NCBI GenBank assembly: GCA_010405405.1
Contig: MU004236.1
Span: forward strand, 508,576-572,575
Reading direction: 5' to 3'
Source: Microthyrium microscopicum
Lineage: Eukaryota
Length of the DNA stretch: 64,000 bases
Shown here: piece by piece, positions 38,151 to 62,973 of the stretch
How the letters are laid out: every line of letters starts with the position of its first letter
Position numbering within the stretch: position 1 is the stretch's first letter
Position numbers and translations under genes: made by a program
Notes under the pieces: generated by a model
Database searches by the model: none
What the model saw: the letters and a program-made list of their open reading frames with translations, nothing else
Told to the model about the DNA's origin: nothing

Positions 38151-41100
38151 CTACGCCTTGCCCCGTCGCGCAAGGTAGTAGGTGATCAAATTCAGCCCAC
38201 TCTCCTTCGCACCTTCCACAGCTTTCCAAAAGCCCTCGCCATTCTCACCGCCCAAGCGCTCATGGAGCGCTAAACAGAATTCGAGATCTGCACGTCGGAC
38301 TTCTGGGTCTGTGTCTTGGAGTAAGCGTACCGCTAGACTGCCGAGACGCTTTGTTTGATCTGGTGAGATCGGGACTTTGCGTGTCGAGGCCGCGGCCAGC
38401 AGAGAAGCTAGACTGTTCAATGCCATGGTGACGGTTCGCGCCATGTTTTCTCCTTGATTACCTGCCGACGATGGACGAGGTGATGATGGAGAGGAAGATA
38501 CGGTAGGTGATGTAGGTGGAGAAAGAGAGGCAGAGAGAGCGAGCGAGTCGATGAGGTCAATGACAGCGGAGATACATTCGGTAGGCTGGCCATTGCGGGC
38601 AATGTCGTCAGCGAGCTTTTCCATTTCGCTAGTAATGTGGCTCATGTCGTCGAATTGGCGGCGTGCGGTGAGCACAGAGCAGAGGGATTGAGAATAGAAA
38701 GGAGCAGCTTCTTTGCGGTGCATAGCGAGCATGCCGCGAATGGTAGCGAGAACTTGGGTCTTGAGGTTTTGCACCTTGGAGCTACTAGGAGTGCCGGAGA
38801 TTTTGAGACTATCTGCTGGTGCCTCGAGGTACTCAAGAAGAGCGACGAGCAAGTCGCCAAACTTGTGGGCGTCTTCGCCCCAGATGTCTTGGTTAGTTTT
38901 GACAATATCTTGTACACGGCGGAAGCCATGTGCGTCTAGATTTTTGCCTCGGACTCGCTCAATGGCGCTGTTGAGAAGGCGCTTATTCTTGGCAGCTTCT
39001 GCTGCATCCCCATTAGGTCCGAGAATGCTGCCAGTGCTAGTCGTCTTCATATGGCCACGGGGTGTCCGAGTTTCCTCAACGTTTTGCTCGTTGCTACGAG
39101 TGCTTTGAGCTAGGTCAACTTGCTCACGCTCAACATCTGAGCTTCGTTCGTTCAGAGCAATTTCGCCCAAGACGGGCTTGAAAGGGCCAGCTGGAGCAAC
39201 GTCAGTCTCATCAGCTTGAAAAGGATCCTCATATATTTGTACTGCTCCAGCTTCGGTTTCAGCCGAGTCAACAAGGCGCGATCGGTCCGGCGAGTGGGTT
39301 TTTCGTTGTGCATCAATTCGTTGAACAAGTGGCGATCCAGGTTTGACATTCTCCGCCTTCATGGGTGTCCGCCGAGGTAAGCCAGACTTGTATGGAGTAC
39401 CGCTTGAGCTTGGTCGAGGAGAGCTCTTATCCCGACTCTCTGGGCGTAGATTAGGAATTACCATCGTAAACCCACCAGTGTCGTCTTCTGAAGCTACAGT
39501 CGCGCCGCTATCGCGTGTTCTTAGATGAGGTATATGTGATTGATGGAGGGGTACCGAGTGGGATGAAAAATCATCCGGTGGATTGAATGGTGTTACAAGA
39601 GTAAGAGTTTCGTCCTTTTCTGGGCTGACGGGCACAGAGTTGGTTCGCCCATGCGTAGGCGATGGACGCGAAACAGTTTGCGCTCGTGCCTTGCCCCTAA
39701 TTGCCGGTGTCATCGCACCACCGCGTGCAGGAGTTCGGCCAATCGTTCGAGCAGCGCTGGCAGCCGTTGGCTTAGCTACCGACCCTATCTTAGAGGGACT
39801 AGTCTGTGGACTAATAGTAGGGGTTGTTTGTGTTGTCTGACCACCTCTCCTAGAGGCGTACGGATCCGCAGTCGCTGGGCGAGCAATCTCTGGCTTTCGA
39901 GGCCGTCGAACTGGGGCAGCAGTCAGAGTGCTCTTTGTCGACGGAGTGTCTGCTAATTTGCTAGGGGCAACTGTATGTGAGCGAGCTCCCGCTGGGCGAA
40001 TAGGTCCACGTCCAGCTCCAGAAGCTTCAGTGCTAGGAAAAGCAGCCAGTGCCGAGTTAGGGCGATCTGGAAGATTCTTCCCTAGAGCAGCCTTTCTCTG
40101 AGCAGCTATTGCATCTCTTATCGATGGCCGAGCTGTTGGAGCAGGTCGACTTTTTGTGCTAGCAACACTTGAGAATGAAGATGCCATGGATGATTTGTTG
40201 GGATTGTTCGCGTCCTTTTCTAATGCGGTTCGCATTTTGCTGTCTTCAAGACTGTTCATGAATCTAGAGATTTGTTAGTAATGGTCACTGAAGGACAGCG
40301 AGAACCTTACTTTTCACCCTGATCCGGCCAAACCTGGGCAAACACCCAATAAGCACTTCGAGTGCTTTCACGAACTTTTGGATTCGCATCTTCGAGACCC
40401 TTTTTCAAGCATTTCAGTATGACGTCCATACCACCGGAGTGTTCAATCTGTGCTTTATGGGATGCGTTTCTTCGAATAACAATCTTAAGCCAGCTGGGAC
40501 CAAACGCTCGAGTTTGCATATTCTTCTCTTGAAAGGTAAGCCAGAGATGGTTCATCATGCGTTGATTGTAAGAGGCATGAGACAATATCGCTTCCATAGT
40601 GGTGTCTGCGTTCTTGGCTGCAAGCTGTTTAGTGTTGGAACTCATCTTGATAAAGTTCTGGATCATAATCTCAGTCATTGGATCCATGGTGGTGCCGAGA
40701 GTGCGATACAACTCCTGCACCAGCTGGCACGCATTGGTTGACATGGTTGTCCGAAGAGTATTAGCAGCCTTGAGAATGCCGTCCATCATGCCCTTGATTC
40801 CAGCAACAAATGCGGCATGAAATTCCTCCAAGGCGTTGCCCTTCAATAGTCGACGAATCTTCTTGATGCTCTTGTCTCTCGCTAGCCAATTGTGTTCACT
40901 CTCTCGTCCTTCAAACGGTGGTTGCATGTCTCTAAAAGCATCTTCGAGCTCGCGCTGAGTGTGTATGTAAAGTGGATCTATGGAAGAATCTTGCGCAACC
41001 GGAGCCTCGGACATGATACTCTCGTTCATTGTGGAATCGACATGACCGTGATCTCCGGCTGGTGCTGACATTATGGATGCGCCGAGATCGAGTTCTACTG

Positions 41101-41885
41101 TGTTTCGCATTCCAAGATGTTGAACAACGAAGGCGACGATAGCTTTTCGTACGTCGCGAGAGGCCATTTGCTTCTTTAAATCGACCTTTGCATGTTCGGG
41201 CGCATTGCTAGCAAATTGTTAGCAATAAGCACAAGAGAGACTGGACAGTTTGACTTACCCAAATAGCTCCACAACTACACTTTTGGCAGTTTCTCGAACG
41301 CCACCATCTGAGTCTTCAAGACAAGCAACTAAACTCGGAACAAAGCCTCGGAATGGCAAACCGTCGCTGTTATGCATCTAGCCAGGCCATTAGTCGCCGT
41401 ATATACCAAGATCGAAAGTAACAAACCTTAACGACCCACATCATAGCCATCTCTTTTGAACGCGCATTGTTCCCAGCCAAAGCTCCCTCCTTGATCATGC
41501 GCTCCACATCGTTCTTCGAATATGGCCACAGATCGCAAAGGGTTTGGCTAGCAGCATTTCTTGTGCTCTCGCGCGCATCACCAAGTCTATCCAACAAGAT
41601 GGGCAGTAACTTTGGTGACCAAGCAGCAATAACCGACGTCTGTTCCTGCAGAGCAAGACGCTTAATTAAATGTGCAACGGTAGAAAACGCGGTGGAAACG
41701 AGAGTCGGTGAAGTTTGAGCGCTGATGCCTAGACGAATAGATTCGAAAATAACAGGTTGGGCGGAATCGGGGACTCGTTGGTGTTTGATGCTGCTTTTGA
41801 GGTTGTTGAAGGCAGCGAGTTTGGTGTCGATGGCAACAGAGGACTTTTTGAGAGTCGCCAACAGGTTCTGGGCCTGCTCATCCAT
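38151..41885 (-). CDS. STU1: CLASP-family microtubule-associated protein Stu1
   Basis: MDEQAQNLLATLKK...LKSSIKHQRVP, LLDRLGDARE, CLASP_N region (FEGRESEHNW, LRTTMSTNAC, LEDANPKVRESTRSAYW), RPATADPY, and C-terminal LITYYLARR. Confidence 0.93.
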
Positions 41886-42555: not shown

Positions 42556-44816
42556 TCATGAGGATTCGTCAAAGTTGGCCGCCTTACAGCCATTCACCAA
42601 CGAATTTAGTGGCCATTGATATGGCGTTTGCGCCCTGGAGCACACAAGTCAGACAATATTCTTCATCGAGTGGGAGGATTACTTACCAAGTAGTCAAGTT
42701 CGCATTGTTGTACGCTTCAGGGTGTCGTGCAATGTATTCGGTAGTTTCATATCCAGGAGGGTCACAGGTGATTGACGTCTCTCCATCTGGTTGATATATT
42801 CGGATGTAGTCAATTCTCATTGTGGCTGGCATGAGCTTTGCCAGGCCTTCCATATTCAGCGCGGCAAACCCATTAGACATGCCAAAGTTGATAACCATCG
42901 ACATGGGCTCCTGTGGAATGACGCGCTGACCAATGTTGCCATTGGGGCCCATTGAGCGAGCGTCTGCAGTCCAAGTTGCTGAGTTGCCTACGAACCAGGT
43001 CACTTTTCCCTGAGGCCCAGGTTGGTATTCAAAGGCATATGTCTGGTACTCTTTACCATCATACCATTTGTTGTTGAGATTCGTCACTCCTGAAATGGCT
43101 TGTTGGTATATTGACCCCAGGTAATCGTTCATGGTCGTCAAAGAATGATCATAAATCTCGAGAAAATCTGCAACTCAGGTTAGGGCTGGAATATTATTTC
43201 CTCAAGGCGCAGCACTCACCATAGTCTGGTCTCCAGAACACATCGAAAGGTGCTGTTTGAAGACTCTGCGAGGCTGAACCAATTGGAGCGCCACTCGGCG
43301 GATCCAAATATCCGACACTGGCTTCCAAAGCATCAATTTCTGGAGCGCCTCTTGACTTGCCCGGGCTTGGATGATCCTCTCCTTTACATGTACACGCCGG
43401 AAGTCTCATTCCTGGAAGAAAGCTCAAGCCGCTGGGATCGCTCTGGTTCGCTGTAATGCCAGCGTCACATATATCGTCGTAGCTATAAGGCCACATGCCA
43501 TCCGTTGTAGAAGCGTATCCAGGTCGTCCAAGATTTCCCATGGACCAGAAGCCTGGCCAAAATCCAATGGTGTCGCCTGCTCCTGGTAACGAAATGCTCG
43601 CTTCCATTCGACCTCCTTTGAAACAAAGCTTGTTCCACGACTGAAGCATTCCAGAGCGGTAGTTGAGATCGTGATTTTTGAAAGCGTCAAACCGTATGTT
43701 GAGAGTTCCGTTCTGTGTCCATATTGCGTCTGGATCATACCACTTGAATTGGTCAGACATATAACTGCTTAAAATAGACTCGTACATACCTCTAAATCCG
43801 CCGTCACTCCATACCATAGATCTACAGCTTGCCAATAGGCATCATCACCATCGTAAAACGTCCTGCCGTCTGTGTTGAACTCATCCGAGAACTGAATAGA
43901 CATTAACTCAGCTTGCTATAAATATTGGGGTTTCAGTACTTACCACAAGGTTCAAAGTTGTGCCATCAAAGGACTTCTTCGTCAACGCCGACTTGGGCGT
44001 ATCTGGGTCTATTAATCCAATTCGTTGATTCTTCAACAGAGGAATGGTCCCGACACTAATGCACATGGGATCATTTGCGCATATTGGGACCGGTTTAGGT
44101 TTATCAATGATGCCTCTTATGAATGACCTGAGATTTGTTAGCGAATGTCTTCCAGCATGAAGCAGTATATTCCATGCTACTCACACGACCGGGTAGCCAA
44201 TAAAAAGCACCATTATGCCCAAGAGCAGCAATACCAGACCTCCGCAGTTTGTGACACCCCTCGTACTGAAGACAGAGCAGCCGATTTCGTCCTTTTCATC
44301 GTCAGGATTGTGTAGCCAGTCGTCTTTCTCAATGTCCTCTGGGTAAAGTAACAATGCTGTCGAGGGCAGTATATTGTATTTCGCGGCCACTGTCTGTGTA
44401 TTGACCTCTTCACTCGGGTCATCAAAGGGCGTGACGAAGGGGCCTGCAGAGTTTGAGTTTGAAGGGCTTGAAGGTGGCCATATACCGCGATCTGAACTCC
44501 AGCTCGATCTCTTCGAGGACGCGCCTGATCTGGGAGATTGGAAGGGGGATGATTCTTCGTCTCGGTACTGCTTTTGCTCCGGCGGTAGCAGCCGTTCATT
44601 AGAGTCTGTGGATTTTCTCTTCTGCTGATATAGTCCCAGAGCTGTCGTTGAGATCTTACGTCGGCTCGCTGATAGCAATGAACGGGTGGAACGAGATTTT
44701 ACTGGCCGGTCCAGTATGTTGTTATTGCTCGAGTTGAGGCGGATATGCGGCGTCGATTGGATATGTGGTGTGTATTCTGCAGTATATTCTGGAGGCGAGC
44801 TCGGCGGAGAGCTCAT
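42556..44816 (-). CDS. KRE6: Kre6/Skn1 GH16-like beta-1,6-glucan synthesis protein
   Basis: [10 protein letters not shown], one TM segment ending [84 protein letters not shown]. Confidence 0.93.
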
Positions 44817-47800
44817 CGCGCGGTCTGGACTGGAAAGTATAACGAGTGACAAATGCAAAGAAGTATCGATGGTCCGCCGGGGGAATCAGATGCGTTGTTG
44901 GGTCTATATTGACAAAGAGTGATGTGATCTGCTTCGTTAAGGTTCCATTGATGGATGCGGAGGGCATATGGATTGAAGCTGGCAGTATTAATTCTCAACC
45001 GTCGATAACTATTTGCAGAGACAGAGAGGAGGCAGAGTGAAGTAGACGATGGACGGGGACTGGGGAGCGAACAAAGAATGTGGAGGAGAGTAGTTCTTGG
45101 CTATCAAGGGGCATTAATGGTGCAGGCACGACACATGGATCAGGCGAGGCTACCATCACTTAGCAAGTGCATTGTAGTATATGGAAAGAGCTGCCATCGT
45201 GCCTGCTCCATATTTGGTAATTCCTCGTGCTGATGGTAGTCAGCATCAGACACCTCTACTTCACCTTCCTATAACAGCCACGACGGGTGTACCTTAGTAG
45301 GAAGTAGGTATTTTGATGCGACTTCTATCCCATCGCTATCTATCATGAAATCGAATGCCAACATCACTGAAAGGATACTGATGATGTGACTAGATCTCCA
45401 CACTCGCCTAGCAGCACGATCGGAACTCACTTCGTCTCTTGTTAGAGTATGGCAGATCCAGGGATGGACCATCCACCTCCTCAGATCTTGCTTGTCCATA
45501 AAACTCAAAAGTTGGCCAAGCTCTTTCAAATATCCTTGCTATTCATGCGACCACCAATCTGTGGCTTGAGGCACTTCATAGCTCATAGCCTCGAACTTGG
45601 GTCCTGTGTTTTGCTCTTACTATCCGTGTACTGGTGAGCATCTTGATGCTGGGCACCATCAATACGACTTCTTACTGCAGCCGAGGAATCAGAAACAATC
45701 GACATATAAGCCTCTAGAATTCCAGGATCCAGAAACTGGTTCTGGAAGTTCCCCTATGTACGTGAGAGATCGCAGAATATATCAAAAATTCACTCCAAAA
45801 TCACGTGAGACGCCACCATTCAATGTTTTCTATCTTCCAAATACGAAATTCTGCACGATCCCATCTACTTTGTTACTTAGGTACTACTTACTGCAATCCA
45901 ATTACAGAGATCTACATCGCAGAAAGAGCTAGGTCAGATGAGCATACATGTATCAACCTGCATGAACTGGTGCATAGACAACAGCAACACCACGTAGCAC
46001 ACAATACCCAAACCAGCCTCCGCTGCATCAACTCAGCGTCCCCGATTCCTGGGGTCGGGAGATGCTTGCAATGAAGAAGCAACACTGGAGAATCAGGCGA
46101 GCACGACACCCGGCGGTACAGCTTCTCGCACATCGCGACCCGAGTGGATGCCGGGACGTTGCATGAGGCTTGATCTGTCGTGACACCAACCAAGTCCACA
46201 GGGGCTTTTTCAGTTGGTTGACTTTTGCGGCCTTGAGTTCTTTCACTAGTACACGATGTTGCGACTAGCCGTTGGGCTTGCACACGTCGCCGCACGTCGG
46301 ACAGTCGACATCGGACAGTCGACAGGTTGTGCTTCGTGAGCACAGCGTCGGGCTTGTTGTGAATTGCAAGCGGAGAGCGCGCAGGAAAAGGGAGAAGCTT
46401 ACTCCACTTATTCAATATCCACGAACGTGATGATCTGGAAACACTGCGTCTTCTCGTGTTTATTGTGCCGACGAAGCAAGCCCGGGACTTGCCTGTTAGT
46501 GCTCGCTGCTTGTGCAACGTTTTCGAAGAGATCATAGTGCATATCTCAAGGGGGGTTGGCTGGTTCAAGACTATTTGGATCAGCTAGGTGTTGACGGACA
46601 TTCAGAGAAGGAAACACAGAGGTTTCTCAGAGAGCCACGTTTGGTGCTTTGGGGTATGTATTCTTGTTTCTTACTAGCTGCATGCAAGAAGCTCATCGGA
46701 AACATCTTTTTGGGAGCAAGCCAATAAGCAACGACTTAAGTTTGGTCCCAAACTGCAGCGGGTTCCGTCGTGAACATGTTTCCCATGCTTCGTGCTTCCA
46801 AGAAAGTTGACAGTATGCAGAACAGATCTCCGGATTTGGCGATCTGGAATTGTTTGCGGTTTTGAGGCTATATTTGTCGGAAGAGGTACCCTCATGCATA
46901 CTGGGCTGCATCAGTTATTTTTGGCGCCTACCAACAACCTTCTAGACAAGAAATAATGTTTAAGCCTTCGAGGTTTCCTGGTTCTTAAGTCATCAAAATT
47001 TGAAGTGAAGCATGAGTCGATAAAATTGAATGGTCCACATCCGGAAGCAAGCGAGCCAATCTTACTTTATGGTAGGGCATCATGAATTGTATTAATTCTG
47101 GCAACACCACGAGTCTTTTAGGTCACCGTTTTTCAGAGAAACGCCAAGAAGAAACTAAACTGTTTTACGAGGGTAGAACCAAAAAACAAAGATGCGGCGA
47201 AAGTGATCGACAAGTAATTCCTGCGATGTCGTGTTTGATATGAAGTCGTTTGGGTTGAACGTCGAGCTAAGACCCCAGCATATCCGCACTCGAGATCAAG
47301 TTCTATATGTCCCTGAATATATAACAAATAGAGATCCACGATTAGCAGCGCCAGATAAGAACGACGGGCATCCGGCTATGACAGCCATGTGTCAGGAAGG
47401 TATGGACCAAACGACTGCTTGATCGACATAAACAGCGTGCTCCAAATTGCATGTTTATTAATATGATGCATACCCGGGTCTTTTTTGTAGTGCCCTGTTC
47501 GGTTTCTCGAAGGTCCTGAAGAACTGGCATGTGCGCTCTGGAGAAGCTTGCAATATGTTTGTTCCCCCCTGGTCGCTCTCTGTCGAGTTGATCCATGAGA
47601 GTTTCGAACCAGGGCTGGGTGCCATAGGCCGCGAAGGGGTACGCGGTTTACCTGGTGTTGCTGGTGTCACATCTTCTTAAGATGCGCTATAATATGAAGT
47701 TGATTGCAAGGGTTGCTATTAGAAACGGCTTTGCCCGGATTGGAATCTAGCTAGGTCGGCTTGTCATTTTGGATACATATTATCTGGGGGTTGGGACCAT

Positions 47801-49601
47801 TAGTTATTCACCTAGTGTGTCAATTAATCTAGGAAGGTATTTTACGATTGAATTGAAAGGAATAATGGATTTGTCTTCCTGCTGGTAGAAATGTATTGTC
47901 ACCTTTCTTGTTCATTGAGGATTCGTCGGCTCAATTTCTCGTTCCTATCAAATAAATAGTCCCGCTGGAATAGAAATAGTCAAGGAAGAATATCACTTAT
48001 GGCGAATGCAGATTTGAGTATCAAGGTATGAGGTATGGATTCTACAATCTCCCATGTAATACGTTTATATGGCATGGAGTATGTTCAAAGCTCACCAAAC
48101 GATGAATGACGAAGTTAGTCAATGACTGCCATTGGAATACTCCTATTTCACACTCCTTGACCAGTAAGGTGTATGATTAGAGAAGACGATTTGAGTACCT
48201 GGGGGAGATCCTACTAATTAGGGCCAAAACGATTCATCGTACGATGTTCAACAGGCGTCATCAATCAGATTCCGCGGATGAGATTCAAAGATCAGGTACC
48301 TATATTAGTGACACGTTCAACTATAAATTCCTCTTTGAATGTTTCAGTCTTTGCTTTGACTGCCATAGTACGAAAATACAGCAGTTTGCGGCATTGATTC
48401 TGGTTTGATCATGAGCACTAATATGCAAAATTAGAGGCTCGAATAGATAAAGAGAATTTAGTAACCTCTCTCTCATACTTACTAAACCAGTCGCGTATTT
48501 TCATCACAAGAGTGGTACAAGTTGACCGGTTCATCGAAAGTAATGAAAACTGAAGCAGACTCTCTCAATGTAGCTTGGCACAAGTTGAGTGTAAACCGAA
48601 TGCGCTGGGAGATGAAGCACCTTTCTTCCAATTGTATGATCCAATGGTCAACATTGTATTTGATGGGAGGAGCTGATTAGAGGTTTGGTCACGTCAGGTA
48701 TTGGAACCTTCCCCATGTTCAATTTCGTTGAAGAGATCTTCAATGCAAAAATCATCCTGTCCAACAAATGTCACGATGTTGATGGAGGTTGGGAGTGCAC
48801 TATTTCTCTGGCGTTAGGCCACCCCAACTTCCAAGCAGCTTCAGTCCCACGACATGCCGAAACAGGTTACCGACCACCAAAAGACCAAAGTTACATGTCC
48901 ATTTAGTGGATAGAGGAAGGCATCTTCCCAAATCGTGACGATTGGCCCACAAGGCAAGGCCGAAAACGAACTGCTGCACCCAGACTTATCCACACCTGGC
49001 TACCAAATCCATCCACGAGCAAAACCCCCCTTGGCTCGCCCCAACATTCCCCCCTAGAAAAAAACAAAAGACAAGAAACCTCCCGCGGCTAACCTTGCGT
49101 GGTTCCGCGCTAGTCTGTGCAGAATTTCAGCCATCCGCATCCTTTTCCTGCAAGCACTGACAAGGGTATGATGGCGCATTACTGCCAACCCCGCTCAAGA
49201 TAAGAACTTCTAAACTTCTAAACTTCTAAACTTCTAAACACGTTACTACATTACTACATTAGTGACGTTACCCCATTACTATATTACTATATTACCCTTT
49301 AATCTCTAGAGCTCTAGGTTATTAATTATAGATAATTGCAATCCTACCTTACTACTTAGAAGTTATTATATTTATATTAAGATATATCTTTCTAATAAGT
49401 TAGTATAGTTACATATATATTATATAATAATTAGTAGGAAGTATAAAGTATAAAGTATATAAATAATTACTAAACGTAAGTTTATATTACTATCTAACGA
49501 ATAGGTATATATATATATATCTACCTAAACTAATTAAGTATCTATCTCTTTCCTAGAGTTATTCCTTATACTTTTTACCTTATTACCTTATCTATAATAA
49601 A

Positions 49602-51400
49602 ATGCTAGGCCCTACTTCTATTAATTTAGAGTTCTATTAGGATAAGATTAAAAATCTTATTATAGGATAGTTTTTTACTTATCTAAAAGTTATATATTAG
49701 CTAAAAGAAAACTATAATATTAACGTTACGCTAAGTATACTACGTTAGAGAATTAAGCAATAGAAGATCTAACGCCTTATAGCTTCTTTATTAGAGCGCT
49801 ATAAAAAGCTTAAGGAAATAATAAAATTCTTATTCTATAACAAGAATAGTAATAAAGATAAAATGCTCTATACTCTTTAAACTATAGAATATCTAATAAC
49901 TATGCGAACTCTCTAGCGTTATTAGTAAAAGCTTAGTCTTAAACGCTACTACAAGTTTATATTAGATAAAAATTTTATAATAGCTTACTACTAAGATAAA
50001 GCAATAGTTCTAGCTAAGCTTTATAGAGCTTATTTATTAGTATCATTATATGGCTATTAAGCTCTAGCTACTAGACTTTATAAATATAGATACCTAATTC
50101 TAGAGGCCTAGATTAATTAAATTTAATAAGATTTAGATTTTGTTAATATATAAGCTTACTAAAGATAAAAATATTAAAAACGTAGCAAATATAGAACTAA
50201 AGGCCTAAACTATATCTAGTTAATTAATAGGTATAATAAACTTAAAAAAGTAGGAATTAAAATTTATAGCTATATTAACGCCTACTTACGAAATATAATC
50301 TAGTATTATGTTAGTATATTAAATACTATAAGTATAAGTTATTTATATTAGTACTTAGATTAGTTAACTATTAATCTTATAATCCCTTAGTTTATTCGCT
50401 TAGATTAAGGAAGTAAAACTATAATACTTACTAATACTTATTATAAGTTTATAAAGGCTCTAGAGCATAGAATTTCTTTCTTAGATTATTATCTATATAG
50501 GACTAGTATTATAAATTAGAGGATTAAGCGCTAGTAGAGAAGCCTTAGCAAATTAGCATTAACTAAATAATAAGTAAATTATATAACTACGTATACTTAA
50601 GAGTTAGTACTAATATAATAACCTACTAGATATTTTTTAATAGGCTAGTTAATAAGGGTTCTTATTTAAAAGATAAACTTAAGGACTAAATTATAATATT
50701 AGCTATTTACCTTCTTATCCTATAGCGCGTAGTAGAGGAATTTATTAATAACTAGAATAACTATAAAATTATTAACGACAAGAAAAAGTAACTATACGTA
50801 GTAAATAGTAAACCTTAGCATTTATATATCTTTCCCTAAAGAGCGTAAAATATAGGCCTAGTTACTAATCTAGTAGTACTTTAGGCTAAGAAAGTAGTAG
50901 TAGGAAACTAGGATAAGGACACTTTTTTACTACCTAATATACTTTAATAGTATAACGAAAAGCTAGATGTAATAAAATTTAATCCTAATAGTAACTCCTT
51001 TAAAATAGAAGAAGATTAGCATAACCTAACAAACCTATATCTTAATTACTATCTTTGCTTATAAGGAGTAATTAGTCACTATATAGCATTAGGTAATACC
51101 CTAATTCTAGCTACTCTTAAAAATCCTTAGGGCAGTAAAGCTTAGATTAGAGATTACCTAAACTACTCTATAGTTTAAGAGATATAGAGGGCTATAAATA
51201 AAGATAATAGAGATAGTAATATTATAAAGTTCTAGGCTACTATAAAACGTACAGGACTTAGCTATCTTAATAATAATCAATTAGGAGATAATTTTAATAT
51301 TAATTTAGCTAAAGAAGAGGAAATTTAAGCTAGTAATATAGAGAGTAAGGGTAATATAGAAGAGGAGCTTTAGTTTATATTTAGGCGTTTTAATTAATAA
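49602..51400 (+). pseudogene. RIP-mutated transposase: Clr5-like N-terminus + IS3/IS481-type integrase core; end approximate
   Basis: One frame from ATG 49602. At 50202 it reads GLNYI*LINRYNKL...GIKIYSYINAYLR...P*FIRLD*GSKT...YRTSIIN*RIKR**. Reversing C>T/G>A changes gives GPNYIWSIDGHDKL...GIEIYGCIDAYSR...PQFIRSDRGSET...YGTS..NQRIERWW, followed by F..NWNNHKI...GKPW.LY. Confidence 0.85.
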
Positions 51401-51493
51401 TAATAATTTATAACGATTTTATACACTTTAATCACTTTTTAAAACCTTACTATACTAGTAAAGCTTAACACTATAAGGCATATTATTAGATAA

Positions 51494-53534
51494 ATAGCAT
51501 ATTCTCTTTATATTAAGAAGTTAAAGATTTCTAAGTCTCTTAAGTCTTTTAAATCTCTTAAATCTCTTAAGTCTCTTAAAAAGGACAATATAAACGTTAC
51601 TTAAATTTTTAGTTTCTTTCTTTATTCTTAATAGCATTAATAATAGAGTAAGGGCCTATAGTAGCATTAGGCTTAGTACTCTTAAGTACTTATCCCATTA
51701 TTATAAATAGCGTATAAATTAATTACAATTAGGTAACTAAAATATAATACCTAAAGTACTAGGTGCTTATAGGCATATCTCCTAAAAGAGTTATTCTTAT
51801 GCCTTTAGTTATATTTACTAATTTATAAGAGCCTAGGTAAAGATAAATAAAAGATAACCTAAGGCCTTATACATTATCACTACTAACACTATATATAATT
51901 AAAAACCTAGATAATGTAATTAAGGTTTCTAACTCTAAAACGCTACTATAATTATAGTAATATATTAAATAAGAGCTTCTCCTTATTAAGATAGAGGAAT
52001 ATAATAATATCCTATTACAAAATCTAAGTAATAGAAGAACTCTAAATAATTTTGTTAAAGCGCAATATAGTTAGAGAAGCTACTAGAACTATGTAGGATA
52101 TAGATTAATAAATGCTATAGCAAAGCTAGATTCTATCGTATAGAAGATTTAATAAGGCGTATTAGCAATTCCTAAAAAAAAAGGTATAAGATTTTATTAA
52201 GATATAAGTATAAAAACTTACCCTAGTTTAGTTCCTAAAACAACCTTAGTATAAATAGAATAGAAAGTAGAGATCTATTCTTATATTATTAACTATAAGA
52301 CGTAGGGTAACTATATACAATTTAACTTTATTAAAGAATATTATAAGTAGCCTAGTCATTAGGGTAGCTTATACTAACGTATATAATAGCTTTAGTAAAT
52401 ATAGACCTTTTTTAGAGTAACGTTAAGAGTATTTAGGACTTTATTTATAAATACCTAGCTCCTTATTTAGACGACATAGTACTTATTAACTATAACAAAG
52501 TCTTTACTCATAGTAGGGGCATTTAAAACGTTAAACTTACTAGCAAAATTAAACTAGGCAAAGAACTTATAGGTTACGTATTCTTAAAGAACAAGAAGGG
52601 TAAGGCTTTAGGCCTTCCTCTAAAGCAAGGAGAGCCTCCTAAGATTAGCCTTATTAGTAGAATATATAATATCATTAAGCTAGCTAGCATTACTATAGGT
52701 AAGTTTATTAAAAGAGCTACCTTTAATATTAATAAGGAGGGTTAACTACAAATTTACCTAATTATATATAAGTATTAGGAGATTATTCTAGACTCTAATT
52801 CTAATGCGTCTATCTTATTAGCGCCTACTTTAAAGACCTTAAAGGTACCTACCCTAAAGACCCTAAAGGCACGCTAGTAGTTACCCTTAGAATAAACCCC
52901 TTTAAGACTTAGGTTAGGTAAAGCTATTAAAGCTAATCTAGGTGCTTAGATAAAGCTTAAGAAAGTTAAGCTTAATATAGACGTCCTTAAGAAGATAAAA
53001 GCTACTATACTAGAAGCTAAGCAAATTATAAAGGATCTATAAATAGCAAAGAATCTAGCAGAGGACAAAAGTAGATAAGGCCCTAAGTCTACTATAAATA
53101 ATAAGAATAATAGCCCTAGTAATAAGAAAAAAGCTATAGCTAGTAGTAAAGATAACAATTCTAATACCTTATTGCTATTACTAAAGACATTATTTTAGTA
53201 ACTAAGAGAGAAGAAAGCTACTAAAGAAGAGAAGGAAGCCACCGCTACTAAGCAAGAGAAGAAAACTACTAAACAAGATATACAGAAGTAGGCCACATTC
53301 TAGGTTAAGCTATTAGAGGACGATATATCTACTTACGCTTCTTAATCTCATAAGGTAGTACTTACTCTAGCGGACGAATAAGTAGCTATAGCTATTAAAG
53401 TAAATATTCTTAAGGTAGCTAAGGCTAACGTAGCAGTAAAGAAGCATAAGGGGCGTAAAGAAAAGGGTGCAAGATATAGACGTAGAGATAAGAAGTAAGG
53501 TAGCGCTACTTAGTTACGTTAAAAGGCTATTTAG
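51494..53534 (+). pseudogene. RIP-mutated cargo gene (ORF2) of unknown function, two introns; ends approximate
   Basis: Continuous frame interrupted only by TAA/TAG. GT..TACTAAC..AG introns at 51837-51910 and 52307-52389 keep the frame. Lys/Glu/Ala-rich C-terminal half. Confidence 0.6.
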
Positions 53535-53599
53535 ATATCTCTACTTATTTAATACTTATTATAGTTTTATTATACTTATTCTACTCTTTTCCTTACTAA

Positions 53600-56500
53600 T
53601 TCCTAAATAATTAAGATAGTATTAACTTACTAATAATTACTTAGTAAATACTTTCTTTATAAACTTAGTAGGAGTTCTATATATAATAGATATAATGCTA
53701 TCTTAATTTAGTAAAGAGGCTAGTAAAACCTATAACTACTACTAGCCTATTATTTCTAACTCTATTACTAGAGTCACTAACCTAGAAAGGATATATTAAA
53801 TGCTTAGCTAAAAAGTAAAGAGTAAGCATAGGGAACTTACTAGAGTTCCCTCCTAGTAGTAACGCTATAACTAGGATTAAGCTATATTTAGTAAGTAGAT
53901 CCTACGCTAGGCTTACTAAACTATAAGCTACTTATAACTTAACTAGACTTTAATAAACTCTAGTTTCTTAAAATTATTTTTTAAAGTTAACTAAGCAATC
54001 TTTTATTAAGCCTTAAGTATTACGCCCTTTATACATAGACCTTAAACTTAAATAGGACTAAATCTTAGGAAGGGCTAATACCCTTCCTAAAATAGGACTA
54101 ACTAATTTAATAATATGTCTTTATATAGGTACTATGCGTATGCTATAAAAGAATAAGTAACTAGCTTATTAAACTATTGTGCTCCTTCTTTATTCTACTA
54201 AACTAATGCCCTTATAATACTTAAGTAGTTTATTAACTTATAGGTTAAACCTAAATAAACGTTAGTAAGCATAATAATTAATATAATTTATTAAGTAGAA
54301 GTTACAAAACGTAATATGAAAAACTACTATATAAAGATAAAATAGTTAAGAAACAAGCTTAAGGAATTTACATAATATTGCTATAAATATCACTAAAACT
54401 AGAACTACTAACTAAAAATTAAATTAATTAAAAGTAGTACTAAACTATAAATTTAAAGGCTAAGGAAGTTATTAGTTAAGTATTAATATATTCCTATAAA
54501 AAATTAGTTATATTTCTATCTAATACTATTAGCTACTTACTAAGATATATAATAATAGTTATTAAGCTTTAACTTTAATTCTAATAGACTTTCTTAGGCT
54601 ACTAGTCTATAAAGGAGTCATAGTCTCGTTTAAGGTAGATATGATGTTAGTTAATAGGAAATAACTTAAAGAAGGTTAATAAAGTTAATTATTAGGCCGC
54701 TAGGTACTTAAAGGTAAGGGTAGTAGGCTCTTTAATATCTAGACTATATCCTTTTAAGATTCTCTAATTAGGAGTAACTCTGTTTTTTTCTTTATACGTA
54801 ATATAGTTATCTATATCCTTATTATTAAATTTATAATAGCGCTCTAACTACCTCTTACTATTATACTCATAAAGAGGATAGCCTTTATTAAAGTTAACCT
54901 CCTAAACTAATTGCTTATTCTCTCCTTATTCTATCTTTACTCTATTTATCTCTTTTAAAGCTCTTAAAGATATATTAATTTTTTTAGCATTATTTAAAAT
55001 GCAAACGGGCTAGTAGTACTCTCTCTGTTTAGTACTATCTATCTAAATAAAGCTTACCTTAGCCTTACTTATGCTTTTAAGAATTCTTTTTACTTACCTG
55101 CATAATCTCTATAGTCTACCTTAAAAGCGTATTAATAATATTAATACGCCCTCACCTTCTAGAAGATTTAAGTTACTAAACTTAACTAATAAGCCTATTA
55201 TATTACTATTACGATCTATATATATCTTTATCTCCTCTACTTTTGAACGTGCCCTAAAAATATCTAACTTCTCTTTACTATCTATATAGCGCTAAAGGTC
55301 CTTATAGAAGGGCTCTAGGTAAGATTCTTTAATTTAATATTATATTATATTAATTTATATCTAGTTATTAGTATTAAGAACTTAATTAAATCTATAACCC
55401 TTAGAGTAAATATTATCAAAATAATATATAAAACGAAATAAAGCTTATAAATCCTTAGCTACCTCTTAGTAAACTAAGAAAGCAGCTAGAAACATATAAG
55501 CTTTATTTATTTTAAGGACTTTTTAGCTAAATACTTCTATATTAGAATGTCTTATAAAGTAGTAACTTTAACTATAGAGTAAGATCTAGAGAAAGTTATA
55601 CCTATATTAACTTATAATTTTAATCTACCCTCTATCCTAGATAATATACTACTAAAAAGTATGCTATATTAAAAAAGGGTTAAATTTAACTTATATATAT
55701 TATCCTTAGTATTTTTAAGTCTTTATCTTTTAATATTAGACCTTAATTGCCCCCTAGGTAAACTAAGAAAATAATTAGGGTCTAATATAGCTTTAGAGGA
55801 GCTAATACCTACCTAAATTAGGATTTTTATTAATCTAATATTAAGTTAGCATTCTTTTTAATAGTAGAAGAAAGTAGATAAATTCTTATCTATTAGTTAT
55901 CTTGTCACTAATATATATTTCTTCTACGTAAAGTACTACTTTAATTAATAATATAGTAGGTAGGGATCTAGTACTTTATTAGTATATATATAATAAAGTC
56001 CTTAGTAGAGACATACTATTACGTTAGATATAACTATCTTTCTAAAAAGAAGCACTACTAGCTATACTCTAATTAATATTTATGACATATACCTAAGTTT
56101 ATAATTAGCTTTAACCTATTAATATAATATTATCCCTATAGATAGAAGACTTCCTAAAAAGATAAAAGAACTAAATATATAATAAGTACTTAGGGCAGGC
56201 GAAGTAGTGTACTTACTTTGCTATCTTAGGCGTAGTAATAATAAGTAAAAGTAAATATATTAAAAAATAACTACTAAAATAAATAGGGATACTAAAAGCG
56301 ATCCTTACTATCTTAAAGTAGATTAGTAGACAAATAGAGTAAACTTAGGACTTACCTAAAGCGTACGTTATAGGCTTAAATCTAGCAAAGGATAGCCTAT
56401 AATACGCTTTTTGTATTTTTGTTTCTATTAGTTATAATATATAAAATATAAGTCTACTGTTCTATACTCCTAGATATTCTAAATAAACCCTTAGTTTGTT

Positions 56501-57300
56501 CTTAAAGTCATTAATTATTACTAGGTAACGAGGTAGATAGATACATAAGCCTTATAAGTTAAAAGTTTAACTACTTAGATTTTATAATATCCCTTTATAA
56601 ATAAGCATAATAACTAGTTAGTAACTACTATAGCTAGTAATATATTTTTAGATATTAGCTAACTCTAAGCTACTCTTTTACTACTTAATCGTCTAGCATT
56701 TAGATATATACTATAGTTACTACTTCTACCTACTAGGAACTAGCACTTTTTAACTTAAGGAGAACGTTACTTAAATAAAGATGTTTAGAAGTAGTTAACT
56801 AGCCTACCTTTATATATTAACAAACTAATAATAATATTTATTAATATTTATTTACATTATCTAGTATGTATTAATAGAAAGTATATCCCTACCTTTCTCA
56901 TAATATACTACTAATTATATACTAAGTAATAAAGTTTCTCTATTTTTTTAGAAGCTTCTATATCTACGTTCTTTTAATAATAATATTTATTACTTTAGAT
57001 TAATAATATGTACTAAGATTTCTATCTAAGGAAAAATTAGGTATATCTAAAGTATAACTACTAGCTAATAAATAATATAGTTAAATTACCTTAATAAGGC
57101 TACCTAGAGTCCTTACCTAATAAACTTAACCTTCCTAGAAAAGATATATACTTTATACTAAAGTAAAGAGTATAACCTCTATTATGCGTTAGGGCTAACG
57201 TATTAGATATACCTATTAATATTAGATTAAGGTAGGATTACTTTTTATAAATAGGAATACTCTTAGTAAAATTAAGAGCCTATAGTTTATATAGGTTAAT
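53600..57300 (-). pseudogene. RIP-mutated multi-intron cargo gene relic(s), unknown product; limits approximate
   Basis: Minus-strand GTAAGT donors at ~56355 and ~56216 with downstream acceptors. Frames such as LEPFYKDL*RYIDSKEKLDIFRARSKVEEIK (~55320-55230) contain only RIP-type stops. Confidence 0.4.
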
Positions 57301-58561
57301 AATTCTATAACCTACTTATACTATTTATATTATTCTTAATATAGTGCTTATGCTTCCTAAGGATATAGGATAGCGTATAGAATTATCTCTATATATAATA
57401 ATAATAAGGCTATAATAATATTAGAAAGTTTTTAGAGAGCCTAGTTTAAATAAAAATTATAGTAGAAAATTATAGTAGTTAGCTTTAGTTTTTAGGCTTT
57501 ACCTTCCTCCTAATTGCTAACTTACTAGTATTTAGTTTAGATAGTATTTAAATAATATGCTAGTTTTTAACTAACTTTCCCCTATATTATAAAATATAAG
57601 CTCCTCTAATATATAGAATGACCTAATTGCTATACCCTAGACTAGAGTATAATTACTACGTAAGTATAATAGATTATATAGAACTATAGCCTTAGGAGAG
57701 CATTGTTAGTAAAATAGATGAAGGAAAAATAAGATTAGACTTAAAAGGTATACTAGAATTACTTTATTATAACTAGTAAGCCTATCTATAAGATAAAATC
57801 TCTAAATAAGGAGGTAATTAGTCGTTATTAATAAGCCTACTATAGATAGTAGTCTACGATAGGCTATAACTAACAAAGGGTAATAATATTATTTATATCT
57901 TATATATAGTGTCTCTAGGTAGTAAGTAGTTATAGCATTTAGTATAACTAAAATACTAATTAATTAATAGTTAAAAACTACCTACATCGCTATAGATTAA
58001 CTTAGCGTAATATAATATATTAACATAGAATGTATTAACGTTAAAGACGTTAAGACTTTTTTTTAAAAGAAAAAAATTAACATAAAAAATACCTTACTAT
58101 TTTGATCTTCTCTAGAAAGCGTATTAGAGAAAGGTAACTAACAAAGTATAATAAGATATCTCTAACAATAAATGCTAAAGCATAAATAGTTATAAAGATC
58201 ATTATAATATCATCACCTTAAAAGGATCTTAACATTAATTAAAATCTACTAAGATGTTTCTATAGCAATTTTACTAAGTATTAGTATAAATATACTACTT
58301 AACAAGCTTTATTATAGAAAGCTCTGCTTACCTAAGTAATACATAGTATTAAATAATACTACTTAGTAATGGAAAGGCTTTATAGCTATCCTAGCTAGTT
58401 AATACTTATATATCTAGAAAACTAGACTAGGTTATAAAGATAGGTTAAACTAGTAATCTCTACTAGTTTTGGCTACCTTAAAGCTAAGTAATTATTAAAT
58501 AATACTTTAAAAAGTAACTATAAGTTATTCTTTTTATTTTACTAAAATGAATATATATAAC

Positions 58562-58672
58562 AAGTAAAACAATATCTTAATCCCTTAATAATATCTTAAT
58601 CCCTTATGTAGTAAGTAAAATAATATCTTAATCCCTTATATAATAAGTAAAATAATATCTTAATCCCTTATA
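58562..58672. repeat. Minisatellite, core AATATCTTAATCCCTTA x4 (period ~32 bp, one short unit)
   Basis: Core read at 58571, 58590, 58622 and 58654. Confidence 0.85.
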
Positions 58673-61600
58673 CAAGGCATCTCCCTATGAAGGGTAGATA
58701 CCTTAACGTATTCTAATAGGTCGTCCATAGAGCGCGCACTATAAGCAAAATACTAAGTATTTTACTATAAGGTATCTTACTATACGTATTCTCTTAAGTA
58801 GTCTTTAGGGAGGAATAGCATAGTAAGCTTTATAATTAATTTTACGCGTATAGAAGCATACTATACTAGAGAGTATAGGATTAAGAGTAGAAAGAGCCTT
58901 TTAGCTAAGAAGGCTTACTCTATAGTAGTAAGACGTTATTCCTAAAGTAATACTTACTACTAGATTATTATAGTAAGACTACGTAGGTATAAAACTACTA
59001 TGTAGTATAAGCTTAACATTATTATAGATTTTACACAATTTTTAATATTATATATTACAATTTTATAATAATTTTACTTCTTTTTTTTCCTAAAAGAGCT
59101 AAAAATATACTTTACCTCTACTAACTTAGTTCTTAATATAGCCATAGAGGAACTTAGCAAGACTTAGGTATATATACTACTTTCTATATAAACTAGCTTA
59201 GCGCTACTTAGACATAATAGCTAGATTAGAGTTATAGTCTTCCTCTTACTTAATACTAAAAAATCTTACTTTACTAAACCTTCTTTATTATAATTCTATT
59301 GCCTAATCATGTTAATTATGCTTAATTTGACGAGGAAAGATAAACTTATATATAATTTAGCCTTATAAGATTATTATATAGTAGTGCTAACTATCTTAGC
59401 GCTAATCTTATGCTATTTCCTTACTTTTTTTACGTTTTTATAGGCATAGTGTTCTATAATAGTAGGCTAGCCCCTTAAATATTTAAGTATAGATACGTTT
59501 TATAAGATAATTAGTATTTATAAGGAATACTTACGCCTTTAGCATTAGTAGTTCTATTAATTAGTAAGCTAAATAGTATATATAATAATTTAGTACGTAA
59601 GCTAAGGGATATAGGCCTACTAAAACGTAACTTTACCTTATATAATATAAATAGAGAAGTCTAAAATACTCTATATTAATGTCTTAAAGCTTACGCAATT
59701 ATATTAAAAGCTAGAAATTACTTTTAGGGATGTAAATTAGTAGTAGAAGAGTATTAGAAGACGTTATAGCTAAAGGGATAGAAGTTTTTAGCGACTTAGA
59801 CTTACTAAAAGTTAGTGAAGTAGTTATAAGCAAAAAGGATAACGCGCTAGAATAATATTATTTAGTAAGGGATTACGTTCTTCTTACTATTAAGATATAA
59901 TACTTAACCTAAAGGGACAATATATAAAGGAATAACCTAAGAACCTACGAAAGGGACAATACCTTAAAAGAGACATCGTAGCTAAGGCTTACCTATAAGC
60001 TAATTTAGTAAGGAACTACTACTACTAAGCTTTACTAAACTTTACTATAGTTATAAATCTATAACCTTGCTTTTATCTTTCTAAGGGAGGAGCCTTATAG
60101 TGCTTACCCTAATTAAAACCCTTACGTAGTATTAGTTTATTTATTAAAGCTATTTTAGAAGAGATATTATAAGTATAGTCCTCCTAAAGAATATTCCCTT
60201 ACTAAATTTAGCAAGCTTCTTTACGAACTAATATCTTTACTTATAACATATCCTTATAACTATACTAAAATCTACATATAGCCTGCTAAACTCCTTCTAT
60301 GCAAGCTATAGTATTATATAAGGATACTACCTTACTAAATATTAGTAACCTTATTATAAACAAAGATAATTTCTACTACTAAAATATAAAAAATAATTAT
60401 TACTAAAAATACTATCTAGAGATAGCCCTAACTAAGGGTAGGGCAGAATAGGTATTAGAATTAATATTAATGGGGGGTAGCGTCGCTAATGTGGTAATGT
60501 AGTAACGTGTTTAGAAGTTTAGAAGTTTAGAAGTTTAGAAGTTCTTATCTTGAGCGGTGTTGGCGGTAATGCGCCGTCATACAAGGGCAACAAGCTCGTT
60601 CAGCCCAAGAATAAGAGGCGTAACTTTTGGGAACCCCAGCCTCCGCTTGGCCGGCGTTCGTCTCGCGAATGCAATCCACGCAACCACCTTTCCGCGCCTG
60701 GATTTTCAGCCTGGTCAAATCGGTTTCATTTCTTTGATGGGCTTGCTTTTTGCTTCGTGTCTCTGTGGCGCGTTGGAGGGCACTTGCTATAGTGTGCCTC
60801 GTGCGACATGAGGTCCGGAAAGGGTGCAGGAAAAGGGTGCAGGCAGTATTTTGGGGATGGTTGGATTTGGTTTCGAGGAGTTGGCCTGCATGAGACAGGG
60901 AGCAAGCAGACGGAAGGCAGTTTGACGTGGGACTTGCGCTTGATCGGAGGGAGGATATCTCTCCGTCTGCTAACGATTGTTACTGATTCGTGGCCTAGTG
61001 AGAATCTATCTGTAGAAGCGTTTACCGTCTGGAGGGACGAGTTTTGATAGTGTAGCCCCTGCGTCACGTTGAGCCTCATGGCTTGTTGGTTTCTATCGTG
61101 GACCTGAAATTGTGTCTTGGTCCTTGGCCGACGCCGATCGGCGGTACAAGCCTCTAAACCGCCTGGCCTAGAAAAGCATGCGGAGATGACATGTCTCGCG
61201 AGTCGCAAGGGTTCAAGATGCACTGGGCGGTGGTAATCAAATTGTTCCTAGCATGGCATGCCTGACCGGTTGTTTAGCGATGGCAGATGGGGGCTCAGCT
61301 TAATAAGAGGCGACGAGCAATAGGTTTAGATTGGGGGTGATAATTAAGATATTAAGGTTGGGAAATAAACAACAGAAACCCGATGCGCCATCCTGGGAAG
61401 GCGGAGATTCAGCTTATATGTGGACGATGTAACCATATAAAGTGTTGGTAAGAATGAACCTCAACATCGCCCACAGCGTATACAAGCAGATGCCAATAAA
61501 TATCAAAAATGATGGTAAAAATACCTTGACCTGCTTTTCCATATGCAGAGCTATTACGCGCATGGCAGCATCCAAAGCATTTATCGTATCTGATGGGAGG

Positions 61601-61859
61601 AAGAGTGCCAGGTGGAATACGCTGATCCTTTGCTATTAGGCATTTGCGGGCATGGTTCTATCAGTATTCAAGCCGGCTCTTGTCCAGCGTGCGGCACGTC
61701 TCATGTGCTCGCAGCTCGCTATATCTTGTAATGCAATTTTAGTATCAAAGCATTTAATGAGCGTTATCCTTTGAATTCAACTGAATTGAAGATCTTATGT
61801 CAGCTTTGGTCATATCTGGTAATAGCGCATTCGATGGGAAAGAGCGCATGCGCTGGGGA

Positions 61860-61954
61860 ATATAACATGCGATGGGAAATATAACATGCGATGGGAAATA
61901 TAACATGCGATGGGAGATATAACATGCGATGGGAAATATAACATGCGATGGGAG
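61860..61954. repeat. 19-bp minisatellite ATATAACATGCGATGGGAR x5
   Basis: Five near-perfect tandem units, plus two degenerate units from ~61821. Confidence 0.92.
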
Positions 61955-62973
61955 AATGGTAAGCAGCGAAGCAAGCACCCTCCCAACGCATCAGTTAGTC
62001 AGTGGAAACAACCCATGGGACAGTTCGCCAGTAAAGTGGCAAATAATGGCAGGTTTTACCAAGTCACCAATAATAATGAGCAATTGGATACTGCAGGCAT
62101 GGGCAAGGACTTGTGCTCTAGCCAGGAATGTGGTGTGGCAGGCCCAGAGATGCCGCAAGAACTCTGAGCGCGAGGTCTTGCAGCTGCTCTGCATCAAAAG
62201 TAGACGTGGATATGACAGCACTAAGCCTATAGGGTACCATAGGGGAGATTTGCCATGCATAAGCTGTCTACTACTGCTACTACTTGTAAGTACTTGGCCG
62301 TGCTGGCTAACGTGTGTGTGCTCGCTAACAGGGCCTCTGGCGTCTCTGTGCTCCCGCTCAAGCCTTGTGTCTCCCCATGCCCTGCCTAGTCCAGCCTAGT
62401 CTGCCATCTTACCGCGCATCTCCAACACCAAATCTTGGGCCTACAGGGCCTACCACGGTGCCACCACCCACCGCCAGCCTGTCTAATCATCTAATGCGCC
62501 CCTTGTCTCTGGCGGGTTAAACCGAACAGCAGCTTTGTGCCGACAAGTCCAAGAATCTTCATTTCCCCTAACCCACGCCATTCTGAGGGTAACTGAGGGC
62601 TCTGGGTCGTTTCTCCCCATCTCCTCCATTTCTCCCTCCTCCGCTCTTCTGCTTGCCTTCCCAACCAGATCCGATTCACCATCTTTGCATCACCAACCCA
62701 TCATCTGTCCATCACCACTACCCTCCTCATCCATCCCTTCCCTACTCTTAGCACTTGTTCTTGCCTTGATCTACACTTCGTTGTCTCACCTGGCTTGTTA
62801 GCTCAGGCTGCGTGCCGTTGCTCCCCCTTGGCGAGCTTCCGTGGTCGCGCCAGTATTCGAGTCCCGTCACTGCTGCTGACGGGCATCCCACAGTTCAAAG
62901 TAGCTGCTGGCTGTATCCAACTTCATCATCCCCAGTTCTGTCTCACAGTGCTGTCATCCATTAAGTTGTGTCG

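Follow-up and report, generated by a model that had tools for sequence, protein, structure and literature searches.

What was the AT-rich block that lies between the genes in a 64,000-nucleotide stretch of Microthyrium microscopicum DNA, and did it arrive as one mobile unit or as several? The stretch (contig MU004236.1 of GenBank assembly GCA_010405405.1, positions 508,576 to 572,575 of the forward strand; the window denotes the whole of it, and all coordinates count from its first letter) comes from a leaf-litter saprobe of the Dothideomycetes, and the block occupies 49167-60581, that is 11,415 bp, with inverted repeats at both edges. It most probably represents a single, full-length insertion of a cut-and-paste DNA transposon of the IS3EU superfamily, a reading to which we assign a probability of roughly 0.88; the assignment to IS3EU is well supported because three structural hallmarks are joined by a specific transposase core. 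An initial annotation of the window had already proposed an IS3EU element hidden under repeat-induced point mutation (RIP); this identity stands, borne out by a DDE transposase core at 50214-50537, by TA..TA tips, and by a 6-bp target-site duplication.

Ends and composition of the block

In a 12.2-kb region around the block, a repeat finder detects inverted arms at 49166-49274 and 60474-60582 that extend over 109 nucleotides with 94% complementarity; the runner-up pair in this region reaches 45 nucleotides and 71%. On the left the sequence reads CAAGGG followed by TATGATGGCGCATTACTGCCAAC, on the right it reads GTTGGCGGTAATGCGCCGTCATA followed by CAAGGG; the hexamer thus stands at 49161-49166 and again at 60582-60587, which at fixed positions has a chance of about 1 in 4096. 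The initial annotation had named repeats of about 110 bp between two copies of CAAGGG, and both can be read directly in the sequence. According to Kojima and Bao 2023 (PMC10045372), TA..TA termini are constant in complete IS3EU families, and their duplications usually measure 6 bp; the tips of the present element read TATGA...TCATA, and GCCA occupies bases 18-21 of both ends. A second boundary pointed out at the outset, GTATG..CATAC with a 4-bp AAGG duplication, is likewise compatible with the bases, because a G precedes the left arm and a C follows the right one. The terminal features are as follows.

49161-49166: left target-site duplication CAAGGG, identical to 60582-60587
49167-49274, + strand: left terminal inverted repeat, beginning TATGATGGCGCATTACTGCCAAC; GC 0.39; lightly RIP-mutated, with CA+TG 10 against AC+GT 17
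49205-49295, + strand: subterminal tandem repeats, AACTTCTA in 4.4 copies (49205-49239) and a TTACTACA-like unit in 6.5 copies (49243-49295)
60474-60581, - strand: right terminal inverted repeat, ending GCGCCGTCATA
60582-60587: right target-site duplication CAAGGG

Each arm contains the 8-nucleotide unit AACTTCTA in 4.4 copies (mirrored in the right arm at 60509-60543), followed by the looser TTACTACA-like array; these subterminal repeats are putative transposase-binding sites. Aligned to each other, the arms differ at 6 positions, by five transitions and one transversion. At each of the five transitions the left copy carries T where the right one, in matching orientation, carries C; three fall in CpG, one in CpA, and one in CpT, and they look more like the deamination of methylated CpG than like the CpA-directed RIP of the interior.

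RIP changes only C to T and G to A, and the purine or pyrimidine class of each base is therefore kept. Its classical pattern is the composition of the block: GC falls to 0.26 from 0.47-0.49 in the flanks, TpA/ApT rises to 1.73 from 0.66-0.68, and (CpA+TpG)/(ApC+GpT) drops to 0.25 from 1.33-1.58, with CpA (158) and TpG (101) depleted and TpA (2,319) inflated. We estimate that about one base in four has been altered. In 500-nucleotide windows the signature is even along the element and ends at the repeats, leaving the flanks unaffected, and the longest stop-free frame in the block has at most 82 codons; the description of a uniformly RIP-mutated, AT-rich block devoid of open reading frames was thus accurate. 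The outer ~110 bp (49167-49290 and 60470-60581) are spared most of the RIP, with a (CpA+TpG)/(ApC+GpT) of ~0.55 compared to 0.24 inside; the GC content of the terminal repeats is 0.39-0.43.

A transposase core beneath the mutations

Conventional homology searches, made with read-through translations in which stops were entered as X, recover nothing from the block. Pfam finds no family in the six full frames of the element and none in the core region alone; among eight shorter pieces the sole match is DUF2812 with an E-value of 0.049, which we dismiss as chance-level. A phmmer search of PDB with 51501-53600 yields no match at E <=10, phmmer with 51501-53000 against 1.84 billion representative proteins none at E <=0.001, and a word-indexed search with 50387-51619 against 5.8 billion proteins none at E <=1. 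Such failures are expected, because of the low GC content and the estimated proportion of changed bases. No other copy of the element is found within the 64-kb window. The whole unit may have been multi-copy, as the initial annotation took its uniform RIP to imply.

The transposase emerges when the mutations are allowed for. In a scan of all six frames, each codon could be read as whichever residue a reversal of C>T or G>A would yield, and the frames were compared with motif blocks typed as residue classes from about ten IS3EU rows of the Data S3 alignment of PMC10045372. In the accessible rows of this alignment, four conserved blocks flank the catalytic residues D, D, and E: W-H-x-D-G..KL; G-x-I-D-G-F-S-R; R-x-D-x-G-x-E-N/T; and S-x-x-N-Q-R-I-E-x-x-W. 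All are matched completely (12/12, 8/8, 8/8, and 11/11), on the + strand, in a single frame and in the correct order, at a place ~1 kb inside the left end from which the gene reads inward.

50214-50537, + strand: catalytic core of an IS3EU DDE transposase, four blocks, from the RIP-aware motif chain
50214-50249, + strand: block 1, present reading IXLINRYNKLKK
50268-50291, + strand: block 2, present reading SYINAYLR
50397-50420, + strand: block 3, present reading RLDXGSKT
50505-50537, + strand: block 4, present reading SIINXRIKRXX

The blocks are separated by 6, 35, and 28 residues; in the rows of PMC10045372 available for counting by eye, the gaps are 6, 35, and 28 in IS3EU-1_CGi_2p and 6, 35, and 29 in IS3EU-1_PGra1p. 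The chain score is 39/39, compared to a mean of 26.5 (standard deviation 0.8, maximum 30) in 200 first-order Markov shuffles of the element and to scores of 25 and 22 for the two flanks, which are unmutated. A wrong-family control with Ginger2 rows from the same alignment file reaches 21/32, with a null mean of 19.1 and a maximum of 20. Of the 39 motif positions, 20 match unaltered and 19 after one reversal, 17 of these reversals lying in the canonical TpA context. The first catalytic D now reads N (AAT, 50226-50228) and the E reads K (AAG, 50526-50528), while the second D survives (GAT, 50403-50405); 9 of the 108 codons of the core are stops.

The gene to which this core belonged probably extended to both sides of it. 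Coding potential was scored by dicodons in the purine/pyrimidine alphabet, with 17 long frames from the window as the training set; in leave-one-out checks the score picks the correct frame and strand for 7 of 8 frames, and three frames of the element score above 35.9 bits, the 95th percentile in a set of 100 shuffles. One of these, 50552-51622 (+), scores 42.3 bits. It follows directly after the core in another frame, which suggests an intron or a small indel before the rest of the gene.

49602-51622, + strand: probable transposase gene remnant, its extent inferred from the layout below

In this layout, the N-terminal part and the core share one frame up to 50537, with 29 stops in 312 codons up to the end of the core, and the coding-like stretch downstream has 29 stops in 357 codons. 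The start at the ATG of 49602 is a guess; in the portion of PMC10045372 at hand, the first catalytic D of IS3EU transposases lies 100-300 residues from the N-terminus. The whole remnant would measure ~2 kb, in agreement with the ~1.8 kb initially allotted to the transposase.

Interior content, competing explanations, and surroundings

The remaining ~9 kb, which the initial annotation inferred to be cargo or accessory genes, may or may not have been such; no passenger gene could be recognized in it. There is one further coding-like segment above the shuffle threshold, followed by a region of weak signal.

52383-53171, + strand: second coding-like segment, 52.9 bits; the antisense frame 52416-53618 scores 43.7 bits
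54338-55288: weak coding-like signal under the shuffle threshold, scoring 21.8 and 20.1 bits (null mean 25.2)

The segment at 52.4-53.2 kb is probably a former second gene: it is rich in lysine and glutamate, has the highest GC content in the element (0.33), and contains 11 stops in 263 codons. Its strand is not certain, the + reading being the more protein-like. Imperfect tandem repeats, of 24 nucleotides at 52824-52869 and of 21 nucleotides at 53207-53278, occur in this neighborhood and may contribute to its periodic signal. Motif chains for the accessory genes of fungal relatives stay at chance: those for the two published types of TET/JBP reach 26/39 in the PE type (null 24.2, maximum 25) and 21/28 in the PU type (null 21.7), and that for alpha-kinase reaches 14/19, equal to its null. 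A chain for reverse transcriptase gives 18/23 against a null of 17.2. All these chains demand a single frame, so that introns or frame shifts could mask a real gene. A "YLDD" near 52460 was considered as a reverse-transcriptase motif and rejected, the chain being at chance and the site lying outside its top chains. In the right half (55300-60473) no coding-like signal is found, everything to the right of ~55.3 kb staying below the dicodon null; a 32-nucleotide tandem repeat (58587-58672, 2.7 copies, 96% matches) lies within it.

The silence of this half gives the strongest of the competing explanations its footing, namely that the ends and the transposase come from an IS3EU element measuring maybe 3-6 kb, which was enlarged by later, nested insertions of other repeats; these were RIP-mutated together with it and account for much of the 11.4 kb, especially the right 5 kb, in place of cargo. 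Mosaic structure is common in the RIP-rich regions of ascomycetes, and 55.3-60.5 kb has neither coding-like signal nor identified content. We nevertheless consider this explanation unlikely. In a RIP-blind self-comparison (purine/pyrimidine-collapsed, with a threshold of 100 out of 120 positions) the terminal repeats are the sole match, direct or inverted, and there is therefore no pair of long terminal repeats (LTRs) and no long nested inverted repeat; the reverse-transcriptase chain barely departs from its null; and the length of the block falls inside the 8.3-12.9-kb range of the 15 published fungal consensus sequences available for comparison. These tests would not pick up fragments of long interspersed nuclear elements (LINEs), solo LTRs, or elements whose repeats are short. 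An LTR element or other retroelement as the identity of the whole block was rejected as well, given the absence of direct repeats in the RIP-blind comparison, the reverse-transcriptase chain at null, and no Pfam RVT match.

Much less probable is that the block belongs to another class, be it Ginger1/2, with its 4-bp duplication, a Polinton/Maverick, or a Starship. The ends can be read as GTATG..CATAC with a 4-bp AAGG duplication, and Polintons have 6-bp duplications and long inverted ends. However, the IS3EU blocks match fully, whereas the Ginger2 blocks of the same alignment do not; in the sources as far as available, IS3EU is characterized by TA..TA tips and by GCCA at bases 18-21; and Pfam detects no tyrosine-recombinase, polymerase, or capsid domain in the element, a weak negative under RIP. 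Starships use a tyrosine recombinase, whose captain gene stands at one end, and are not known to have long inverted repeats; inverted ends of 109 nucleotides are not known as a trait of theirs. The element resembles them as large mobile DNA in an ascomycete and differs from them in its DDE core and its repeats, on which ground, together with the weak Pfam negative for a recombinase, a Starship was rejected. The original view, which excluded both LTR elements and Starships, holds: there is no LTR pair, and a DDE core is found between 109-nucleotide repeats. Dada elements, which duplicate 6-7 bp within small-RNA genes, were likewise set aside, since 47-63 kb contains no tRNA and no Rfam family. 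That the block is not a mobile unit at all, its inverted repeats and hexamers being a coincidence of two solo ends (which are common for Styx in the accessible text of PMC10853768), is hardly credible in view of the correct orientation of the ends, their identical outer hexamers, the RIP boundary that coincides with both, and the transposase of the matching superfamily between them.

Several observations weigh against a single, full-length IS3EU insertion. The transposase match consists of four short motifs under a permissive reversal rule, without a full-length alignment or a tree; the RIP-invariant coding score misses the core itself; and Pfam, PDB, and phmmer give no match for the read-through translation. 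At the ends, a 4-bp AAGG duplication fits the bases equally well, the 6-bp length comes without replication from a single copy with a single duplication, and the tip, TATGA, departs from the fungal TAYGG, of which it fits 4 of 5 bases. Finally, half of the element has no recognizable content.

If the block is one IS3EU insertion, its history may have run as follows. The transposase would have bound the terminal repeats and the 8-nucleotide subterminal repeats and then excised the element, which would have entered an intergenic stretch by a 6-bp staggered cut at CAAGGG. With the family at two copies at least, RIP would have acted in the sexual cycle, changing about half of C and G, mostly in CpA; in this way N and K would have replaced two of the catalytic triad, and every frame would have acquired dozens of stops. 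As a gene carrier this copy no longer functions, although its outer 110 bp have stayed almost unchanged.

No host effect is evident, because the element is dead and lies between genes. A gene broken by the insertion was not found: after joining the flanks in a script, only frames of at most 143 codons span the junction. The neighboring host genes on the left are STU1/CLASP and KRE6/SKN1, and domains in other frames of the window comprise CLASP, KRE6/SKN1, a fungal transcription factor, LIM, and TPR.

38151-41218, - strand: STU1/CLASP homologue; its frame 38151-40274 is 100% identical, over the full length, to an NCBI protein of Microthyrium microscopicum
43194-44885, - strand: KRE6/SKN1 beta-glucan synthesis gene, spread over several frames, with introns as the presumed cause

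About 1.25 kb to the right of the element, a 19-nucleotide tandem repeat, CATGCGATGGGAAATAGAA, occupies 61828-61953 in 6.6 copies with 89% matches; the stop-free frame 61923-62399, in which Pfam finds no domain, shares part of this span.

Comparison with known systems

Nearest to the element are the fungal IS3EU families of Repbase from rusts (Pucciniales) and from Tuber indicum. As far as PMC12730594 is accessible, these have 6-bp duplications and repeats of more than 30 bp that end in TAYGG..CCRTA, and they carry genes for a transposase, TET/JBP, and alpha-kinase, with TET/JBP between the other two; the 15 consensus rows of its Table S1 are 8,337-12,933 bp long, and several have short subterminal tandem repeats. 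Named examples are IS3EU-4_PGr and IS3EU-1_PGra of Puccinia graminis and IS3EU-1_TuIn of Tuber indicum (12,049 bp). Inspected by eye, the same 15 rows have GCCA at bases 18-21 in 8 cases, GACA in 6, and ACCA in 1, all conforming to R-M-C-A. The Microthyrium element shares with the fungal IS3EU of Kojima 2025, so far as they are described in the accessible portion, the 6-bp duplication, the TA..TA termini, the repeats longer than 30 bp, the subterminal repeats, and a length of 8-13 kb; it is unlike them in its TATGA tip, in that TET/JBP and alpha-kinase motifs are undetected, in its Dothideomycete host, and in being destroyed by RIP. Among the alignment rows available, the nearest by eye is IS3EU-1_PGra1p, with IWSADGHDKLKK where the present element has IXLINRYNKLKK, and DRGTETI where it has DXGSKTI.

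Within the Dothideomycetes, a full-text literature search for large IS3EU-like elements turned up Styx alone. Styx/REP9 of Zymoseptoria, in the accessible parts of PMC8232023 and PMC10853768, is 7.9 kb long, with four genes, repeats of 36-43 bp, and 6-bp duplications; its integrase is nearest to IS3EU, and the authors regard it as a distant member, confined to a single genus. Both are large DNA transposons from the same fungal class with a 6-bp duplication, an integrase-type transposase, and RIP-mutated copies (for Styx, in the sister species). The core described here fits the canonical IS3EU blocks, whereas Styx is a distant member by the same partial sources, and its repeat, which starts ACGGACGAC in the accessible Data S1, has by eye no evident likeness to the present one beyond a TAYG-like start. 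DUF3716, present in two of the four REP9 genes, has no Pfam match in the element, a weak negative under RIP. GingerRoot of Selaginella also belongs to the IS3EU transposase lineage and has 6-bp duplications and mostly TA..TA tips, in a group of plants and animals according to the accessible text of PMC10045372; its likeness to the Microthyrium element is taken from this description.

It is possible, though we advance it only tentatively, that the block is a canonical, rust- or truffle-like IS3EU relic in the Dothideomycetes whose accessory genes were unlike TET/JBP, alpha-kinase, and DUF3716. If so, IS3EU elements would have been gene carriers repeatedly across the Pezizomycotina, and mostly hidden from annotation by RIP. 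A transposase erased by RIP and invisible to Pfam and phmmer can still be classified by a short motif chain that tolerates C>T and G>A, an approach that could serve for the numerous AT-rich blocks left unclassified in the genomes of ascomycetes. The novelty claimed for the element by the initial annotation was overrated, as fungal IS3EU of 8.3-12.9 kb with passenger genes (PMC12730594) and Styx/REP9 (PMC8232023, PMC10853768) are already published, to judge from the accessible parts of these papers. Given its size and these gene-carrying precedents, the element is therefore a further example of a described type; what it adds is a canonical IS3EU in a Dothideomycete outside Zymoseptoria.

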